Assembly (NCBI GenBank): GCA_035084275.1 | Contig: CM068755.1 | Span: 16,926,001 to 16,990,000 of the forward strand | Reading direction: 5' to 3' | Origin: Hydrolagus colliei | Lineage: Eukaryota | Length of the DNA: 64,000 bases | Shown: positions 43,136 to 64,000 of the stretch, piece by piece | Layout of the letters: every line of letters starts with the position of its first letter | Position numbering within the stretch: the stretch's first letter is position 1 | Position numbers and translations under genes: made by a program | Notes under the pieces: generated by a model | What the model was told of the DNA's origin: nothing | What the model saw: the letters and a program-made list of their open reading frames with translations, nothing else | Database searches by the model: none

Positions 43136-43755
43136 AGTCAGTGAGAGAGTGTGTGTGTGTATACACTGAGTGTGAGAGGCTGTGTGTGTATACACAGTGA
43201 GTGTGAGGCTGTGTGTGTATACAGTGAGTGTGTGTGTGTACAGTGAGTGTGAGAGCCTGTGTGTGTGTATACAGTGAGTGTGAGAGCCTGTGTGTGTGTG
43301 TGTGTGTATACAGTCAGTGTGAGAGCCTGTGTGTGTGTGTATACAGTCAGTGTGAGAGCCTGTGTGTGTGTGTGTATACAGTGAGTGTGAGGAGCCTGTG
43401 TGTGTGTGTACACACTGAGTGTGAGAGCCTGTGTGTGTGTGTATACAGTCAGTGTGAGAGGCTGTGTGTGTGTGTGTGTATACAGTGAGTGTGAGAGCCT
43501 GTGTGTGTGTATACAGTGAGTGTGAGAGCCTGTGTGTGTGTACACACTGAGTGTGAGAGCCTGTGTGTGTGTATACAGTGAGTGTGAGAGCCTGTGTGTG
43601 TGTATACAGTGAGTGTGAGAGCCTGTGTGTGTGTGTATACAGTGAGTGTGAGAGCCTGTGTGTGTGTATACAGTCAGTGTGAGAGCCTGTGTGTGTGTGT
43701 GTGTATACAGTCAGTGTGAGAGGCTGTGTGTGTGTGTATACAGTCAGTGTGAGAG
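43136..43755. repeat. Minisatellite of about 28-36 bp, (GT)nATACAGT(G/C)AGTGTGAGAGCCT, about 20 copies
   Basis: Directly visible tandem array ending 20 bp before the WDR93 ATG. Confidence 0.9.
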
Positions 43756-44500: not shown

Positions 44501-47500
44501 CTCTCTCTCAGTTCCCCAGCACGCTAAACTGCCTAGCAAACTCGACGGACAAAAAGTACATATTCGCGGGGCTGGCAAACGGCCTTTCGGCTCTGAACAC
44601 AGAGAGCAACGAGGGTGACGGGAACCTGGTTGGAGTCTGCGGTGGAGATTGTCTCGTTGCAGGCCATGCTGGGTGTCGGCAGTTTATATGTCCTGTCCAC
44701 CATCGATAACATAGGTAACTTCATACTTCACACTTGACACTACTGGCGATAAAATAATAATAATAATCCCTGCTTTTGACGTGGGCGGCTTTCTCTCGCG
44801 TCTTCCAATCTAGACTGCGAATCAAAGGCGCTTCGCACGGGATATATGCTCTAAAGTGACTTGACCGTATATATATATATGTATATTTGTTGGGCGAGCG
44901 AAACACGCACAGCAACAATGTCCACATCCACCCAGCCACACACACACACACACAGTCGTGGATTGAAATGACCAATTTTTTTTTAGGGATTATTATTATT
45001 AGGCGCGTGTGTGTGCGTGTGCGTGGAGTAAGGAAACTTGCCCATGGTTTTGCCCTGACCTGCCTGGATTTGAATACAGGTCTCTCACACTTGTAAGAGT
45101 GAGTGAGTGAGTGCTCTAACCCGACGAGCTGCACAGGGACGGGATGTAGGGAAAGAAAGAGGATCTTGTGAGTTTTGCTCTTTAATCGGCTTGTTTGTCG
45201 TCTGTCAGGTGTGGCTCGGCTGTTTGTATTTTACACCAATAGTTTCTATTTGGTGAAAACCATCAACGCAACTGTGAGTACCCAGGTCCCTGGGAGGTGG
45301 GGGGGGGGGGTAGTGGGGGGGGGGGAAATAAACAGTAGGGGTTTAATTAGCTTCACACTCCACCTGTAATAACCTCATCAAGCCTGAGGTGTTGGGATCT
45401 CCACCGGCTGATGTTTTCACAAGTGTCCGGGGACTGGATGGTGTGAGGGTGGGAAGAGCATGAGATGGAGAACTCCCGACACCTCATCTCTGCCAGTAAT
45501 TAAACCCCAGAACGAGAACCACGCAGAGTCAATAAATAATCAATAATAATAATCCTGGCATCTGAAACAACGGATTTTCACATATTATCAACGTCTCAAA
45601 GCGCTTCACAGAATATACTGTAAAGTGAATTTGACTGTATACATATTTGCGGGCGAAACGCGGCCGACAATTCCACACGGCAGCGTCCCTCCCCCCACAA
45701 ACAGTCGTGGATTGAAATGACCAATTTTTATTATTGTGTTTTTTTTGGAGGGGTTATTTTTAGGCGCGTGTGTGTGTGTCTGTGTGTGTGTCTCTCTGTG
45801 TGTGTGTATGTGGCGTAAGGAAACTTATCCAAGGTTTCGCCCTGGTCTGCCTGGATTCGAACACAGGTCTCACACTTGTAAGGCAGGGGGGTTGAAAGTT
45901 CCTGCAAACTCAAACCTTCCGATGCGGAGACAAGTGTTAGTGACTGAGCCTGGCTGAGAATTTGGGTGAAACCTTTGTTGGGATTCAAGAGGATGTTAAG
46001 GATCTTTCGTTTGAACCCACATCTTTCAGTCTCAGTGTCAGTGTCCTTCCACATTTCCACGAGAAGTTTGTTGTTGATTTGCTTTAGGATGATCCGAGCA
46101 AGAGAAACATTTGCATTGAGTTTCAACTGTCGGCCGGTGGTGAATTTGCCAGCATCACTTTTCAAGGTAATGCACACGCCACAATTCAGTCTGAGGCAGC
46201 TGGCCTCGGACAGTGGATCCCTGACATGACAGCATTGGGGTGGGTGGGGTGGGTATGGGGTGGGAGACTGGGGGGTGAGGGGTGTTGGGGGGGGTGGGGG
46301 GGGGGGGGGGGGGGGGGGAGAGCGAGAGAAAGGTGCCTGAATCCTAGCGTCCTAACCTCATCAGCCACAACCTTCCTGGTGCCCACGTCCCAGTCTCGGG
46401 GGTGGTGGGGGGGGGTAAGCTTTCCCTAGTGTTGGAGGGGTGCGGGTGGGGGGGGGGGGGGGTGGACGGTTTGTGGGAGATGTGTGTGCAGAGCTCAGTG
46501 TGTTTCTCGTGTCCTTTGTGCAGAGAAAGAGGAATATTATCTGGAAATCTATCGGTTGTTGAAGGATGCCTGGTTATCAGACCTAGAGCAGATGCTCGCA
46601 GCTCCCCAGAAACACGTTTCGTTGAAAGACCCACCTAGGGTACGTCCAAGCCTTCATTACTCCTCTTTTAAGGCAATAAAAACCTTGCAATTTGATGTAG
46701 AGCCACATCACGTTGTTGAGAAGTCTCCCAAAACGCTGAATAGGATTTATTATATCACGAAGTGAATTTGAACACACATTTTGTTGGGCGAAAAAATGGC
46801 AGCTAGTTGTCCCACAAACAATTGCGGATTGAGTTCCCAAATTATTCTTTTTATTTATTTATTTATCGGATGGATTATTGCTCCCAGAAAGCAATCGAAG
46901 AACAACCGGGTTTGTACTGAATAAATGTGAATTGTTTTGTGTTGTTATGAGTAGTGACCGATTTTGGTTTCCTCCTCCAGCAAAGCCAAGCCTCAGGCCT
47001 GGATGACATCAAGTTGGCAGCACCAGTTCTAACAATGAGACTGAGGCCTAAAAAATTTCCAGGTAGGATTCGGGAACTGCTGGTACTTGACGGTAGATTC
47101 CTCTCACAGAAACCTCGGCAGAAAAAGGCCATTCACCTCCACGCTACAGCGAATCCCGTGAAGCGCTTTGAGGCGTCCTCCCGATGTGAAAGGCGCTATC
47201 TTATATCAAACGCAAGGATTATTATTCTTGTATTGTATTAATTGTCTGTCTTTCACAATCCCGTGTTCTTTCCCCCCGTTTGCTGCGTGTTCAATACTAA
47301 TAATTACCCTTGCGTTCCGCACAATGACGACGACAAAATTACATATTTAGATACAGGAATCCCGTAGCGGAGTGGTTAACTTAGCGAGATCACCTCGCGA
47401 GTGAGAGGACCTGGGCTTGTACATGTGGGGGTGGGGGTGAAAAATGGCAGCTAATTGCACAGACAAATAGCTGCAAACAGACGTAGATTGAGTGCAATCT

Positions 47501-50500
47501 TTACAGTTCACTAGTACATTCTGTGAAGTATCTTTGAGACATCTCAACAACCTGACAAATGCAGCTATTATTATTATGATCTGCAGGTGAAAAAAATACC
47601 GTGGAATGAAGTTCAAGAAGTATACAACTGCTCTGAGAGCTGCTCTACATAAGGGCTTGACTGGGTGGGAGGGGTGGGGGGGTGGGTGGGGGCGTCTGTG
47701 AGGATAGCACGTTGACTAAAGTTCTATTTAAAGTTCTGATCAGCGCTCGGGACCTCCTCCCTATGTCAACAACAACAACAACAACAAAATTACAATTGTA
47801 TTGTTGACCCCCTCGGGAGGACGGTCCCAAATTGATGGAATTCTCTGCCCCAAAGAGCTGTCGATGCTCGGTCGGTTGTTGAACGTGCGATTGATAAGAT
47901 TTCTTGTGGATAAAGGGATTGAGGGATATGGGGATAAAACAGGTGGGGGAGGGGGGGGGGCAGGTGGAGTTAGATTAGATGATCAGCCATGATCTTATTG
48001 AATGGCGTGGGCCAGGCTCGAGGGGCTGAATGACCTACCCCTCCCTTACTCCTAATTCTTATGTTCATAGGTAAGTCGCTATCCAAGTATAATTTTGCTG
48101 TTGTAATCTCTTTTCTGTGCTCGAATCATTTCAGACTGAAATTTGATGTGTCTTCCCTCTGGGCACCTCACACAAATTCAACTGTACCCAGCCCGGGGGG
48201 ATTTTTTTTTGGTTTCTTTCGTTTTAGTTTTCGTTTTTTTTTTTTCTCTTGTTGTTTGTTGCTGCTGCTGCTGCTGCTTCCTGCAACAGAATCCTCTTGG
48301 AAAACTCTAACGGACGCCCACCAGAAGATTGGAATCACCGCATTGATGGGGACAGGTCATGGACATGCCATCAGCGCCCAGCAATGGAGGGAGGAAGCCA
48401 AGATATTTGAAGAAATGTACAAGAACTCGCTGGCCAAAGACACCACCACAGGGGAAGCAGAGGAATCTCCCAGGTTATTATTTTACTCCACTCCTCCCCC
48501 CCCACCCCCCACCCCTCCCCCACCCACCCCTCCCCGTTCTCAGAGCGCGTAGAGCTGAGGTTCGACAGAGATCTGTCTCCGCACCTTGTTGCCTTCCTCA
48601 CCTCTTTCAAGACTCGGTCTCAAGAACCCCTCCGTTTTTGACCATTTCCTTCGGTCATCCTCCCTCTAGCCCCTCTCACCCTCCCTACAACAACAACAAC
48701 TTCGATTTATATAGCGCCCTCAAAAGCGCCGGATGGCGTCTCAGAGCGCTTGACAATAATGGATCCTGGGGGGCAAGCCAGAGGGTGGTGGGGGGGGGGA
48801 GAAAGGTAACCAAAGGCATGGTCAAAGAGAAACGTCTTTAGGCTGAGACCTGAAACTGGGAAGAGAGAGAGGGGGTGAGGAGAGGGCGAAGGGGGTGAGG
48901 AAGGGAGTTCCTCGAAAGTCCCTACCCTCCCTCCACCCCTCAGCTCAGGTGCAAATCCTTGGACCGTTTAGTGCCTTGGGATGTGCCTCCTGATGTGAAA
49001 GACGCTGTGCCAATGTCATTTGTTGCTGTTGAGATCACATGTTGCAGCTCATTTGATCTCATTCAACCCCCAAATGCCCCCTCTCTCTTGTCATCCACCC
49101 AATACGTCAGGTGAAGAGCTTTGAGGCGTCCTCCCTCCCTCCAGGTGTGAGAGACGCTGTCTGAGGCGTCAGGATTAATCGTACGATTGTTTACTGAGAG
49201 GAAACCTTTTGCTCTGATTTGCAGTCAGCCGAGGTGCTACTTCCTGATGCTGGGACGCGTTCTTCCTGTGTGGATGGACAATAAATCCTACTTTGGTGAG
49301 ATCCCTGACTCACATTACTTCCTCCAGTTTTTAACATTAACTTTTTTTGCGGCCAGGTTAAAGGTTTCCTCGCTATTCTCCTATCTTTTTGCACCCCCCC
49401 CCCTTCCCCCCACTCCCCGAGTCTCTCCCCCCCCCCCCCACCCCCGACTCGTTCGTTGGCGTTAGGAGGGAGCGAAGGTCTATCGAGCGGGCAAGTGAGT
49501 GTGCCAAGGCAGAGTAAAAAGCCAAGAAACTTCAATCCCCGGGTCTTTTTGAGGGTTTTTTTTTTAGCTCCCAGTCGGCCTGGAGGTCGAGGGCTTGGAT
49601 TATTGGAAAAATGCCGTCCTTCACAAAGGATGCAAAGCTTGAGCTCCGATCTTTACTCGGGATGGATGTTAAAGAATCTCACAGACTGGGACCTGAACCC
49701 TCCATCAAGGCCCTAGTCTGTCCACTCCCCCCCACCCACTCCCCCCTTGCGAGCTGACCCGAGGGATTCTCATTACATTGTGCAATTGGAGAAGGAAGTT
49801 TGTTGGCAGGAAGTTCCTGAATTTGTTGTTGTTTTGGTATCTTTCCCGCAGGTACCTTGGGCGTATGGTGGACCGGAAACCAAAACATTTATTTGTATGT
49901 GCTAACAAAGCCAACAGGAAAGGAAAAGCCAGGCAAGAGCACACTTTCTACCATCTTAAGTGAGACCAGTGCTGGTCTTGAAGACTCTCCTGTTGTTTTT
50001 TTTTGACCGATTAAATAATGAAATGCTGTTTCAAAGGTTGAAGAGCTCAGTAAGAGGGTGGGGGCAGGGGGTGGGTGGGGGGCAGGGGTGGGGGGGCAGG
50101 GGGGCAGGGGGTGGTGGGGGGGGGCAGGGGGTGGGGGCGACAGGGGGGTGGCGGCAGGGGGGGTGGGGAGGGTGGCGGATGGGGGTGGGGGGGGGCGGTG
50201 GGGCTGTCTCTGTGCCAGTGTAAATGTTGGTGGTTTCTTCGGAAGGGGTGACTGATGGACGTTTGTGTTTTGTCTGCCGCTCCTCACTGTGTGTTACAGA
50301 TGTGGACCCCAAGCCTGACGTGGTCTGGCCCCACGCACGCCCCATTTGCTGCGCTACCGTCAACAACCAGACCACTCTGCTTGCATCTGGGCTGATAGAT
50401 GGAGTAATCACCATCTGGAATACTAGGCTAGGTACAGTATTCAATAGGTACAGTATATAATAGGTACAGTATATAATAGGTATATAATATTATTTATTAA

Positions 50501-54546: not shown

Positions 54547-55023
54547 ATCGCATTGAACAGCAGTGACCGTTTGGGGTGAAGCTCTTTCGGGGGCTGGGGG
54601 TGTCTCAACATGACAGAAGGAGTGTGTAGCAAATGCAACTAACCACAGTATTTTATCAGTGAAAGTTCCTGATCTATAGATACCGCACCCCCTTGTGGTG
54701 TGAAGGCAGAACTGACCTAATGGCAGGTAACTACAGCCACTGTAGTTACCTACAGTAACTACAGTAAAGCTGACAGACACTGAATCAATTAGAGGGGCGT
54801 CTCTAAACCTACACACCATTTGTCAGAGGGCCTACAAACTCTGCCCCTGTGTCTGATTCTGTGCCTTGAAGGTTTAAAGATGGAGCAGAAATTTGTGGGA
54901 AAGTTTATTTGTAAAGTTCGTTCCGAATCTGGAAGCCGATTTCTTTTTTTTTTTAAAAAGCAGAGGAACGACGGCTTTAATAGTCAGGACTGGATTGGTG
55001 AATTTTAAGAAAAATTGGACTGA

Positions 55024-55330: not shown

Positions 55331-55512
55331 ATAGAATTTCAAACCCCCACGAGAGGAGAGAAAGTTGAGTGAAAAAGGTTTGAACAATTTGGTCGCACAC
55401 AGACAGGGTTTATAATAAGAATTGTTTTAATTAAGGAATAAAGTAATATTTTCTATGTACATTACAAAACAATACAAAGGTAGCCGGTGCGTACACATAT
55501 AAGATTTGCCAG

Positions 55513-57966
55513 TTATATTCTCACTGCCTTCAACATCAGGTTAAACAATAAAAGGGCCTGTGGTTGTCCACACATAGCGAGGGGGGTCACTGAGAGGGCC
55601 AGAGCGCAGGTACCACTTCTCCCAGTCAGGGCTGGGAATGAGCTAGTCTGGGCTGGGAATGAGCTAGTCTGGGCTGGGAATGAGCTAGTCTGGGCTGGGA
55701 ATGAGCTAGTCTGGGCTGGGAATGAGCTAGTCTGGGCTGGGAATGAGCTAGTCTGGGCTGGGAATGAGCTAGTCTGGGCTGGGAATGAGCTAGTCTGGGC
55801 TGGGAATGAGCTAGTCTGGGCTGGGAATGAGCTAGTCTGGACTGGGAACAAGCTGGGATTTTGAGCTGGGTAGGAGCTGGGAGTTTGGGCTGGATAGGAG
55901 TTGCCAGTTTGGGCTGCGTAGGAGTTGGCGGTTTGGGCTGGGAATGAGCTAGTCTGGGCTGGGTAGGAACTGGGAGTTTGGCCTAGGAATGAGCTAGTAT
56001 GGGCTTGGAGTGAGCTAGTATGGGTTGGGAATGAGCTAGTCTGGCCTGGGAATGAGTTAATGTGAGCTGGGAATGAGCTAGTCTGGGCTGGGTAGGAGCT
56101 GGGAGCTTCGGCTGGGAATGAGTTAGTCTGGGCTGGAGTTTGGGCTGGGAATGAGCTAGTCTGGGCTGGGTAGGAGCTGGGAGCTTGGGCTGGGAATGAG
56201 CTAGTGTGGGCTGGGTAGGAGCTGGGAGTCAGTGTCCAGGAGCTGGTGGCCTCCATCTCGCAGCCAATTTTCTGCAACAGGAAGAAGAAAAAAATATTTA
56301 ATATCAAGATGAGCAGACAATAAAAACAGCATGCGTCTCATCACAACTTAAATAGTTTATTTAAACCGTCATTAAAATCAGAATGATTTCAATCTGAATC
56401 CGAGGGAGCCTTCGGATGACATGTAACACCAAGCTGTTCATGTGGACATTAAACATCAAATAATAAATAATAATACATAATAATAATAATAATCCTTGCA
56501 TTCTGACACAGCAACTTTTCCCGTCTTCTAGACTGTGTTTCAAAGCGCTTCACAGGATATACTGTCAAGAGAATTGACTGTATATATATATTTGTGGGAG
56601 AGCGAAACGCAACAGACAATTGCGTACAGCAGCGTTCCACCCCCACCCCCCACACAAACAGTCGTGGATTGAAAATGACCAAATAATTATAGGATTTTTT
56701 GGACAGATTATTATTAGGCGTGGACTGGACTCCACAAATGGCTGTAGTGGGAAAGAGGAGGGAGTTTTTTTTCAATCAACCAGATACAATTGGGCATTCA
56801 CTTCATATCTGTTTGTGGAACTTTGCTGCTATCCTCAGCTCAGTTTACAGTGGATCTGGTGAAGCATTTTAGGACATTTGATGCTATGGTAAGGCAAGCG
56901 CTCTATCAAATGCAAGGATTATTATTGTTATAAATATTATTTTTATTATTGATAGGAAACCGCAGAAAAACTGGCTTCCAAATCAGGACTGGAAACGAAG
57001 AACCGTTAAGACCGAATGGTCCAGAGACAACCCAGAGACTGGGCGGGCTCTCAGGTCCTTACCCCGGCAATAAACCACCTGTGCTTTACACCTGACGCCG
57101 ATTAATTTGACCAGTGGCCAAAGGTTCAACAACCGCCCTACAGACTGCGCTCAGTGTCTCAACACAACCTACCTGCAGAGGGGAGAGAGTCAGAGGCTGT
57201 CCGTGGTGCGAGAGAACTCTGCGTTCCGTGGGGAGCGAGGACGAGGCTCGCTGGTGCAAACCCTCTTCCCCGTTGACTCCCAGCAGAGAAGCTTCTCTGT
57301 CGTCGACGTGGCCCTGGCCGGATCCCAGCAGCTTCGTCAGGTGAGCGATGTAGCGGACTGCCAGCTGTAGGGTCTGTAGTTTGGTCAGGTTCTGGTCGGG
57401 GGGCACCACCGAGGGAGGCAGGTACGTCCGCAGGTTGTGGAGAGCGCTGGCCAGGCCCCTCATTCTGAGTTTCTCCCGCTCGCTGGCGCTCTCTCTCTGC
57501 CGGCCCGAGCATCTCCAGCGGCTCTGCCTGCGCCTCCCTCCCCGGCTCGGCGAGGCCGGGCTCCGGTCAGGGCAGTGGGGGGCAGGGGGGGGCGAGGAGG
57601 GGGTCCCCCGGGGCAGCGAAGAGGGTCCGGCTTGGGACCAAAATCGGCAGGACTCGGGAGAAGCCGGTGAGAGGCTGCGGGGAGGGGAATCGGTCAGCCA
57701 CTCGGACTCGGAGCTCAGGCAGCTCCAATCTGTGAGCCCAGGCCAGGCCACGTCCGCGTCCACGTCAGGGCTGGGCTGACTCCACTCGGTCTCGGGGGCT
57801 GGGTGGGACGGTCCCGATGGACGGGGAGGTCGAAAACGAAAGCTTCGATGTCGTCCAGTTCGGAGAGGGCCTGTGGCCAGCAGGGCAGGGGGGAGTCGGG
57901 CGGCTGGGAACGCTGGTCTGAGAAGGTCTTCACACAGTCCTGGTTCTGAGATAATGTCGGCTCCAT
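55513..57966 (-). CDS. MESP: Mesoderm posterior (MESP1/MESP2-like) bHLH transcription factor; exon 1 57966-57173 (one frameshift between the ATG and the bHLH), exon 2 56271-55513
   Basis: b[63 protein letters not shown] is Mesp-type, preceded by an SLSPASPES motif. Donor CAG|GTAGGT at 57173 and acceptor (t-rich)gttgcag| at 56271 are both phase 0. Adjacent to WDR93. MESP1 versus MESP2 cannot be resolved. Confidence 0.92.
55628..56230 (-). repeat. Coding minisatellite in MESP exon 2: 21-nt (TSSFPAQ) and 24-nt (TPSSYPAQ) units, about 27 in total
   Basis: On +, GCTGGGAATGAGCTAGTCTGG occurs in 10 perfect copies at 55631-55840, followed by degenerate 21/24-nt variants to about 56230. Confidence 0.95.
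56478..56722 (-). mobile_element. SINE, 5'-truncated, in the MESP intron
   Basis: Family tail and core. Confidence 0.8.
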
Positions 57967-58109: not shown

Positions 58110-58245
58110 CTGCTTTTATTCCTGACCCTCGGAGGTGTGAAGCGAAACTTCACAGGATAGGAAAGTTGAGCCGTTAGGAAGCTCGGTGTTTCGTACCCAG
58201 GATCCGAGAGAGAGAGCGAGAGAGAGAGAGAGAGAGGTGTGAAAC
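58110..58245 (-). promoter_or_regulatory. MESP proximal promoter with T-box sites and a TATA-like element
   Basis: AGGTGTGAAG at 58133 paired with inverted CTTCACA at 58148; AGGTGTGAAA at 58235; AATAAAA on the minus strand at about 58114-58120. These lie 150-280 bp upstream of the ATG. Confidence 0.65.
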
Positions 58246-62405: not shown

Positions 62406-63576
62406 GGGTTTTTTCCTGGCCCGCCTACACTCAGCGCAGTCTCTGTACTCAACTCAAAACTGTTCTGAGCGGTATCCAAGCGGTTGTGTGTGCTTGTGGG
62501 CTGTGGATTGATGGCTGGGGTGGTGTGAGGATGAGGTGGAGGGCGGGTGGGGTGGGGTGGGGGGTGAGGTTGGATTGGGTGGCGTAAGTTTTGGGTTTGG
62601 GATGGGGTGAGAGCATGAGCGAGAGTGTTTGTGTGTGGTGTGTGTGTGTGTGTGTGAGTGTGTATGTGAGTGTGCTGGTTTGAGGCAGGACTGACAGAGC
62701 TGAAGCTGTCCGGGGATGAGAGAGGATTGAACAAAGAGCGACTCTCCACCGTGGGGCCAGCCTCACTGTGATTTTTGGCCGCGATTCAGAACAATTTGGG
62801 TCGAACCCAAGCCCAAAGATGTCAAGCAATAACTGGCACTGTTCAACTGGGACAATGTTCTGTTTCATGTAGAAACAAGACTCAGGGCTTGTCTTTGTGC
62901 CAGAATTGATTTATTTTATATTATTTTTATTTTATTTTATTTTAATATTTTATTTTATTTTTATTTTTCTTCTCTTTCTTTATTACAAAATGATTCCCCC
63001 TGCCTCTCCTTGGCTGACTTTCTGACTGGGCGAGTTACTGAGCGTTGCCAACGCGAGCTGAACGCTCCCCATTCACAGGTCTCACTGTAAGTACAACTCC
63101 TCTTTTCAGTTACCAGGGGAAAAAAAAAGTCACCGCAGTACATGAGGTTGAGCCGAGCTCCCCAACGGCCCGGCTCAGAGGAGGGGAAAATCAACCCCGG
63201 ACGGAGACCGAGAGTCGACAGTACAGACATTGATAGCCAGCCCACATTGCCAATGGCTTTTACGCTCGGGGTGAAAATTCCTAACCCCGTTTCAGGCAAA
63301 GTCCCGAAACAATTCTGCCAAAACAAAATGGGAATTTGATAGTTGCTTGAAAAGGAGAGACGTGAATAATGTGTGTGTGTGTGTGTGTGTGTGTGTTTGG
63401 GGTAAAAACGGAGTCGAGTGTGTTTGACTGGGTGGCTCACTGCGCAGGAATGGGGGAGGGGGGGTGGTGGGGGTAGTGTACTGAGTGGGCTGACTTCTGT
63501 GCTGTGATATTCAGTGGTTCTGTGATGTGTTGCTCTGATTGACTTATCTGAAGATGCTTTGGATATAATATTAACA

Positions 63577-64000
63577 TGAACATAAGAATTAGGAGCAGGA
63601 GTAGGCCATTCAGCCCCTCCAGCCTGCCCCATCATTTGATAAGATCGTGGCTGATCTTCTGACCTAACTCTGATTACCTGCCCTATCCCCATATCCCCTA
63701 ATCCCTCTATTTTTTTAAAAAAAACTCTATCAGTCTCAGCCTTGAAAATGTTCAAGGACTGAGCAACTACAGCCTTCTGGGGAAGTGAATTCCATAAACT
63801 CACTACCCTCTGAGTGAAAAAATGTTTCTTCAACTCTGTTTTAAAAGGCTGACCCTTAATTTTAAGACTGTGACCCCTGGTTATAGATTCTCCTACCAGG
63901 GGAAACAGTCCCTCAGTGCCTACTTTATCCAGCCCTTTAAGAATCTTATATGTTTCAATAAGATCCCCCCTAATTCTTCTGTACTCTAGAGAATACAGCC
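63577..64000 (-). mobile_element. CR1-type LINE 3' end (ORF2 C-terminus and 3' UTR), continuing beyond the window
   Basis: Minus-strand peptide KHFFTQRVVSLWNSLPQKAVVAQSLNIFKAETDR is typical of the CR1 ORF2 C-terminus; 3' UTR GGGGCTGAATGGCCTACTCCTGCTCCTAATTCTTATGTTC. Confidence 0.88.

Follow-up and report, generated by a model that had tools for sequence, protein, structure and literature searches.

The 64,000-nucleotide stretch of the Hydrolagus colliei genome analysed here (hereafter the window; part of contig CM068755.1) contains a Mesp gene whose predicted second exon carries a tandem array of 28 short units. By analogy with activation domains described elsewhere, we favour on balance a reading in which this in-frame minisatellite supplies an uncharged, predicted-disordered tail, with a phenylalanine or tyrosine every 7–8 residues, that would serve as a loosely constrained helper activation region. 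Coding minisatellites in the tails of transcription factors, those of Mesp proteins included, are known already; the present array is an unusually long and regular variant.

The gene and its corrected model

The gene had been called Mesp in a preliminary description made from the sequence alone, and that assignment holds. Besides a clear match to the bHLH family (Table 1), for which the nearest solved chains are the bHLHs of NeuroD1, Twist1 and TAL1, a 38-row tree places the window gene within a set of 35 Mesp rows, split with support of 100/100 from three mesogenin-like rows (we take these to be mesogenin from a loop motif; one of them is a long branch). Within this tree the window gene pairs with Callorhinchus milii (support 97/100; 71% identity over 150 columns), and among the matches listed in a protein search the best homologue is C. 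milii XP_007906558.1 (LOC103188387, hereafter P0002; E 3.5e-63). PEX11 and WDR93 lie just past the 3′ end of the gene, the PEX11 Pfam matches being weak and below cut-off, and with that reservation the synteny PEX11A–WDR93–MESP is present in the window; the therian order is PEX11A, WDR93, MESP1, MESP2 in the accessible text of 10.1101/2023.05.22.541847. The gene is a holocephalan Mesp beside WDR93, in the position held by MESP1 in therians. As to orthology with MESP1 or MESP2, the position is that of MESP1, but the chondrichthyan rows (20 of 20) form a group of their own (90/93), apart from amniote MESP1/2. Mesp2 acts in segment boundaries according to the accessible portions of PMC9732429 and PMC13705354; for the window gene such a role would be by analogy.

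Cartilaginous fishes have several Mesp paralogues. By eye, P0007 and P0010 of Chiloscyllium plagiosum, and also P0012 and P0021, combine differing N-termini with a near-identical bHLH and downstream stretch, which suggests gene conversion between shark and skate paralogues. In helix 2 of the bHLH (about 57370–57385), the window gene and C. milii have KLQT, sharks and rays KLET and most other Mesps KIET; the mesogenin-like rows typically have a glutamine here. From about 5200 to 50500 and on to the Mesp gene, the window holds a CHD-type helicase (+), RGM (−), a PEX11A-like gene (−), WDR93 (+) and Mesp (−). The helicase call rests on Chromo, SNF2 and Helicase_C matches, and we take the gene to be CHD2; RGM and PEX11 are about 10 kb apart here, while human CHD2 and RGMA presumably lie megabases from PEX11A. 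No PLIN1 or KIF7 family match was found among the 148 window ORFs scanned. At 62964–63998 (−) there is a stop-free frame of 345 codons with no Pfam match, the first part of which presumably resembles the 3′ end of a CR1-type LINE ORF2.

As it stands in the window, the gene is broken: the frame opened by the start codon at 57966 is not the one that encodes the bHLH and runs into a stop after 83 codons, a frameshift that the preliminary description missed. One base each at the two exon 1 positions in Table 1 and at 55581, all within G runs, is absent from all three covering runs (X1 and X2 from organism A, X6 from organism B; three studies; run X11 is without cover there). These surplus bases are likely assembly errors, a reading that would only be strengthened if one of the organism A runs is the source of the window, as may be the case. 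When they are discounted, the exon 1 frame is restored through the former break and matches P0002. The third surplus base shifts the window frame after the array, and the last 21 residues of the 253-codon exon 2 frame first described are an artefact of it; in the reads, exon 2 has 244 codons, and the corrected protein has 508 aa and a different end. On this corrected model, the Mesp gene resembles a frameshifted pseudogene in the window, yet is intact in runs from three studies.

That outcome bears on whether we are looking at a decaying, redundant Mesp paralogue, one with a genuine frameshift in exon 1 and a repeat that grew because its product had ceased to matter. The frameshift in the window itself and the presence of several paralogues in cartilaginous fishes would fit such a history, which we nevertheless consider highly unlikely given that the surplus bases are absent from every covering run, that the bHLH changes relative to organism B are synonymous and that the protein has kept its identity to C. 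milii.

With three surplus G bases in a span of 2.9 kb, the assembly seems to contain unpolished indel errors, so other apparent frameshifts in the genome need checking against reads. Around the TATA-like element that marks the putative promoter, the DNA is recognisably common to C. milii, as seen where a second C. milii model, P0004, begins off-frame. Further candidate polyadenylation signals came from the pattern scan at 54981 and 54909.

Table 1. Positions in the window of the Mesp gene, its array and neighbouring features
Feature	Position	Strand	Basis
TATA-like element, 5′ of start codon, inferred promoter	58114–58120	−	pattern scan
Mesp exon 1, coding part, 264 codons after removal of two surplus bases	57173–57966	−	end-to-end alignment with C. 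milii XP_007906558.1 (P0002)
Two surplus G bases in homopolymer runs, likely assembly errors	57798, 57801		absent in X1, X2 and X6 contigs
bHLH domain, Mesp-type loop	57335–57499	−	Pfam PF00010, E 8e-14, 51.6 bits
Predicted phase-0 intron, 901 nt	56272–57172	−	GT..AG ends
High-copy interspersed repeat in predicted intron	~56460–56720		many window copies, very high summed read depth
Polypyrimidine tract and CAG acceptor	56272–56300	−	pyrimidine and T counts
Non-repetitive start of predicted exon 2, 14 codons	56230–56271	−	likeness to C. milii P0002
Minisatellite, 28 units, 201 codons	55627–56229	−	TRF and frame translation, unit register
Homogeneous 3′ block, nine identical 21-mers and one differing in last codon	55627–55836	−	unit alignment
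Post-repeat tail and read-supported stop (55538–55536)	55536–55626	−	reads of X1, X2 and X6
Nearest candidate polyadenylation signal, ATTAAA (putative)	55426–55431	−	pattern scan
WDR93 exon pieces, convergent neighbour	46088–50457	+	Pfam PF21030 in 5 of 148 ORFs scanned, 2 above curated cut-off

The array, its predicted splicing and its divergence

TRF places the array at 55624–56223, with period 21 (score 563) and period 42 (score 598). Where about 27 repeats had been described, the array proved real and its count slightly higher: it consists of heptads of TSSFPAQ type and octads of TPSSYPAQ type, with 19 units of 21 nt, eight of 24 nt and one of 12 nt. The same three lengths had been reported before, together with a strict assignment of Phe to 21-nt and Tyr to 24-nt units; this latter part does not hold, as one 24-nt unit carries Phe and one 21-nt unit is without an aromatic. 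Mixed units grade into a homogeneous block at the 3′ end, as described, although the ten perfect copies claimed there are nine plus one variant (Table 1), and the copy number of this block is to be read with the proviso that no listed contig bridges it or spans the array. Among the 201 residues are 49 Ser, 31 Pro, 28 Ala, 25 Thr, 23 Gln, 19 Phe, 7 Tyr and 3 Gly, with a single charged residue and 26 aromatics. An aromatic is kept in 26 of the 28 units, 23 of the 25 gaps between aromatics measure 7 or 8 residues, and not one of 1000 shuffles is as evenly spaced; such evenness is, however, the automatic outcome of any tandem repeat.

Several candidate relatives of the array were set aside. Pfam DUF4744 passes its cut-off on the array and was dismissed as a likely composition match, and four proteins matching in the repeat only (P0122, P0123, P0220 and P0226) lack a bHLH and belong to other, unrelated repeat proteins. 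No longer protein bearing the array repeat was found at E ≤ 0.001 among 7995 candidates of 442–2000 aa, and the structural look-alikes from the ESM Atlas all score at most 0.83, inside the chance range.

The array is stop-free in one of six frames, the other five holding 3 to 20 stops, and this is the frame that the acceptor at 56271 would lead into. The array is more than chance. By itself, the open frame is weak evidence that the array codes, since seven of the eight other arrays of at least 100 nt within the window are likewise open, one of them 615 nt long. That control, a minisatellite at 43141–43755 with a period of 31 nt and one open frame, apparently lies inside the PEX11A-like gene.

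The acceptor at 56271 had been described as strong, phase 0 and in phase with the array, and it does rank top of the 117 AG sites that follow the donor as far as the array's end: 18 of 20 positions are pyrimidines, a count tied for first place with 56741, and it has the most T. The donor (CAG/GTAGGT at 57173) is likewise phase 0. At 56988 lies a rival acceptor, also phase 0, with pyrimidines at 15 of 20 positions; splicing to it would add a single codon before a stop. When the donor is read through, the frame that follows carries a 2-base insertion in X6 and X11 (organisms B and C), which takes it from 28 to 63 codons; this frame is not kept.

Eight of the 29 distinct unit variants are synonymous, against an expectation of 25–29% (p 0.42–0.63), and the amino-acid sequence of the array gives no sign of purifying selection. 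Between the window and X6 (based on 25 coding rows among the 40 substitution rows listed, of 75 in all, and subject to possible misalignment of units between the species), seven of eight listed changes in the array alter a residue, compared with seven of 16 in exon 1; in the bHLH all three listed changes are synonymous, as is a fourth just upstream. None of the seven non-synonymous array changes falls on an aromatic, an outcome that we estimate chance alone would give about one time in three. Divergence from X6 amounts to 3.8% in the array, 4.6% in the intron and 3.6% and 1.3% in two pieces of exon 1, for a run without cover at 56173–56269 and with the first 212 nt of its 443-nt repeat contig unplaced on the window.

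Organism B has one whole extra 21-nt unit, and all observed length changes of the array, this one included, are whole codons, in agreement with the earlier statement that length variants are multiples of 3. Turnover looks ongoing, as the description of the array as still expanding had implied. The joint chance of finding no stop in the 29 variants (0.26) and two non-unit indels that both preserve the frame (1 in 9) is about 0.03, calculated post hoc, and on this basis there is a weak indication (p about 0.03 post hoc) that the reading frame of the array is kept while its residues are not. Neutral-like substitution is equally expected of a repeat in a 3′ UTR.

The repeat in Callorhinchus milii and in other Mesps

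Model P0002 of C. milii has the same phase-0 exon junction as the window gene. Over the opening 15 residues of exon 2 the two agree at 13, which counts as weak support for a shared exon (P = 0.13 at 70% background), since background likeness to C. milii is high even in an intronic piece (8 of 11 residues) and an off-frame piece (13 of 18). P0002 goes on to about nine octads of LTGTSYPA type, compared with the 28 mixed heptads and octads of the window; the S-Y-P-A core is common to both, whereas the C. milii protein has no Phe heptad and its model ends within the repeat, without the post-repeat tail of the window gene. The array frame is open in C. milii also, and the two arrays are likely homologous, as the last unit of the window array runs into P-A-L-T-G, which is the C. 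milii register. Both C. milii proteins are predictions, P0002 being annotated as uncharacterised in RefSeq. The second model, P0004, uses another donor and has no repeat; it looks unreliable, given that it starts off-frame and that its end matches intron DNA of the window.

Taken together with the splice sites, these comparisons make it quite probable that the array is translated via the acceptor at 56271. The alternative is an untranslated array, in which splicing to 56988 or read-through of the donor leaves the minisatellite in a 3′ UTR or in downstream DNA and its open frame is a matter of luck. The phase and pyrimidine content of 56988 would allow this, but 56271 is the stronger acceptor, and read-through would use a frame that is shifted in organisms B and C. 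One of the two C. milii models omits the repeat, but it is the one that looks unreliable. Neutral-like substitutions and intron-like divergence are what an untranslated array would show, and open frames are common among the arrays of the window; against this, the sole open frame of six is the spliced frame, and it is open in C. milii as well. We regard an untranslated array as unlikely, and proceed with translation through 56271 as the preferred reading.

The preliminary description had called the repeat lineage-specific and had proposed a survey of Mesp exon 2 across chondrichthyans. Comparison of predicted Mesp proteins gave the shared junction and the homologous repeat of the C. milii model, and none of the 18 elasmobranch proteins (from sharks and rays) scored, none being among the 30 top rows of the tail-repeat scan; post-bHLH tails measure 42–104 aa in elasmobranchs, 128 aa in C. 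milii and 294 aa in the window gene. Lineage specificity thus survives at the holocephalan level only: the octad of C. milii is homologous, and tail repeats recur in other Mesps. They were scored in 16 of 188 fetched proteins, from C. milii, Esox, Umbra, Dallia, Osmerus, Leptodactylus and ten of a 26-residue bird type, in a periodicity scan that used its own threshold and no shuffled control, included three mesogenin-like rows and drew on database predictions throughout. The scan covered the Mesp set only, so that enrichment of repeats in Mesp is not inferable from it.

The tails of Esox (XP_034143008.1), Umbra, Leptodactylus and bird MESP1-like proteins resemble the window gene in bearing, after the bHLH, tandem S/P/T-rich units with one aromatic each. 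Their units, of 11, 22 and 26 aa in esociforms, frog and birds, respectively, differ in being of unrelated sequence, present in fewer copies, more charged and richer in Ser-Pro, and these repeats likely had independent origins. Esox lucius XP_034143008.1 (P0197/P0244; source name "RPB1-like") has about 14 FSPAGPG-type heptads before the bHLH and a second, independent repeat of 11-residue Tyr units after it, and Umbra P0227 has this 11-residue repeat in common with it. Many sauropsid Mesps of birds and turtle (for example P0209, P0104 and P0132) have a 26-residue Trp-containing repeat after the bHLH, with varying copy number.

The GQ-rich region of human MESP2 is located in exon 1. This dipeptide repeat follows the bHLH closely, contains no aromatics and is unrelated in sequence to the window array. 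Like the array, it sits on the C-terminal side of the bHLH, in a Mesp gene of two exons (predicted ones in the case of the window), as far as the accessible text of PMC9732429 goes. Among 7983 candidates, one match to a Mesp longer than 524 aa was found, a fusion-like lizard model; no chimaerid protein was present among the best 120 of 320 matches or the best 150 of 438. A conserved Mesp C-terminal motif after the array was considered and set aside: the read-supported end is, by eye, loosely like the ends of teleost mespa proteins, but the ends are too diverse for a meaningful comparison. A search of titles and the beginnings of abstracts, which most subscription papers fall outside, found no publication on the Mesp repeat of the window or of C. 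milii.

Aromatic spacing and the possible activity of the tail

The regularly spaced aromatics had invited comparison with the Pol II CTD. Both have a seven-residue period and one aromatic per unit and are S/T/P-rich. CTD heptads are Tyr-led and contain two Ser-Pro kinase sites, unlike the array, which is mostly Phe and has 0 SP, 0 YS and 4 TP in 201 aa, with no Pfam CTD family match. The comparison is not supported beyond this resemblance, and the same goes for proline-directed phosphorylation and hence for the suggested tuning. The other proposed model, a FET-type prion-like domain, has Tyr-dominated stickers in Gly/Ser/Gln spacers and fares no better, as the array has more Phe than Tyr, little Gly and abundant Pro. 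The C-terminus of EGR1 contains S/T/P-rich octad repeats; no EGR1 family match was found in a Pfam scan of the window protein and array. In a single-sequence AlphaFold2 model, 225 of 252 residues have pLDDT <50 and the array is without secondary structure; low confidence is expected anyway when no alignment is used, so the model is weak evidence that the tail is disordered.

A closer parallel is offered by the periodic aromatic blocks described, in the accessible text of PMC11321997, in disordered regions of transcription factors and defined as at least four aromatics with spacers of 4–9 residues. The array has 17 aromatics in a row at such spacers. This is the longest run among 245 tails (a set that still contained six mesogenin-like rows), the next best being 7, with 25 of the 245 reaching 4. 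As far as that text goes, the human blocks mostly have four aromatics, differing in this from the window array, whose 17 are of minisatellite origin; like them, the array is serine-rich and charge-poor. The same text reports that the blocks drive transactivation in GAL4 assays, with aromatics required, and that aromatic dispersion tracks activity in a neutral but not in an acidic backbone. Higher dispersion increased the activity of the bHLH factors NGN2 and MYOD1 (C-terminal region), with no gain for HOXB1 and a loss for the N-terminal region of MYOD1. Transcription factors are said there to keep aromatic spacing sub-optimal in a trade-off with specificity, mostly on the strength of engineered variants, and EGR1 is named the most periodic human transcription factor (PMC11321997). 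MESP1, MESP2 and MSGN1 have 0 occurrences in the searchable text of eight of its supplementary files, and we found no Mesp2 C-terminal activation or degradation regions in the open-access literature. That the array works as these blocks do is an analogy, which we adopt as such.

The analogy invites a stronger claim, namely, that the array works as an activity dial shaped by selection. It would be the natural counterpart of the engineered "AroPERFECT" regions, with aromatic spacing and copy number selected for raising Mesp activity in the brief somite-boundary pulse. The retention of an aromatic in nearly every unit and the evenness of spacing would suit such a dial, but even spacing comes automatically with tandem repetition and synonymous change is not in excess. 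The aromatic survived the change from octad to heptad, and no non-synonymous change in X6 touched one, yet the latter has a sizeable probability by chance. A homologous array persists in C. milii, and S/P/T-rich repeats with aromatics have separate origins in Esox and Umbra, in Leptodactylus and in birds; on the other side stand the short, non-scoring elasmobranch tails and a scan restricted to Mesps, from which no enrichment of repeats in this family follows. The gain in activity of NGN2 and MYOD1 with higher dispersion, in the accessible text of PMC11321997, is a point in favour. On this evidence a selected dial is possible, not indicated, and we judge it rather unlikely. The broader proposal that the chimaera gene is a natural "AroPERFECT" bHLH factor, with an aromatic tail more periodic than any other in the Mesp set surveyed, a copy number that tunes activator strength and a place in a family whose tails repeatedly recruit repeats (in chimaeras, pikes, frogs and birds) as an evolvable dial, seems to us quite unlikely. 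The tuned function put forward in the preliminary description is accordingly not indicated by the sequence, as the array gives no sign of amino-acid constraint.

The most likely mechanism, in our view, is instead a slippage-driven translated tail with some aromatic-dependent activation that drifts freely. Its starting point, an intact Mesp gene with an array whose single open frame is phased with the acceptor, is observed. Exon 1 would be spliced to 56271 and the array translated. The octad would have been present in the common ancestor with Callorhinchus and would have been amplified and turned over by slippage or unequal exchange; the shorter Phe heptad presumably arose within it and was recently homogenised at the 3′ end. 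Selection, as the length changes partly show, would keep the frame and leave the residues free. The spaced aromatics may then touch co-activators weakly and at many points, contributing some transactivation, with copy number and exact sequence mattering little, if the analogy holds.

If the tail is inert, it is an ordinary coding minisatellite. If translated, an array of 28 units would make this developmental bHLH factor a natural extreme case for the trade-off between spacing and specificity outlined in the accessible text of PMC11321997, with ready controls in the shorter repeat of C. milii and the repeat-free shark and skate relatives. The gene would thereby offer a handy natural test case of whether repeat growth changes the activity of such a factor or acts as neutral filler.
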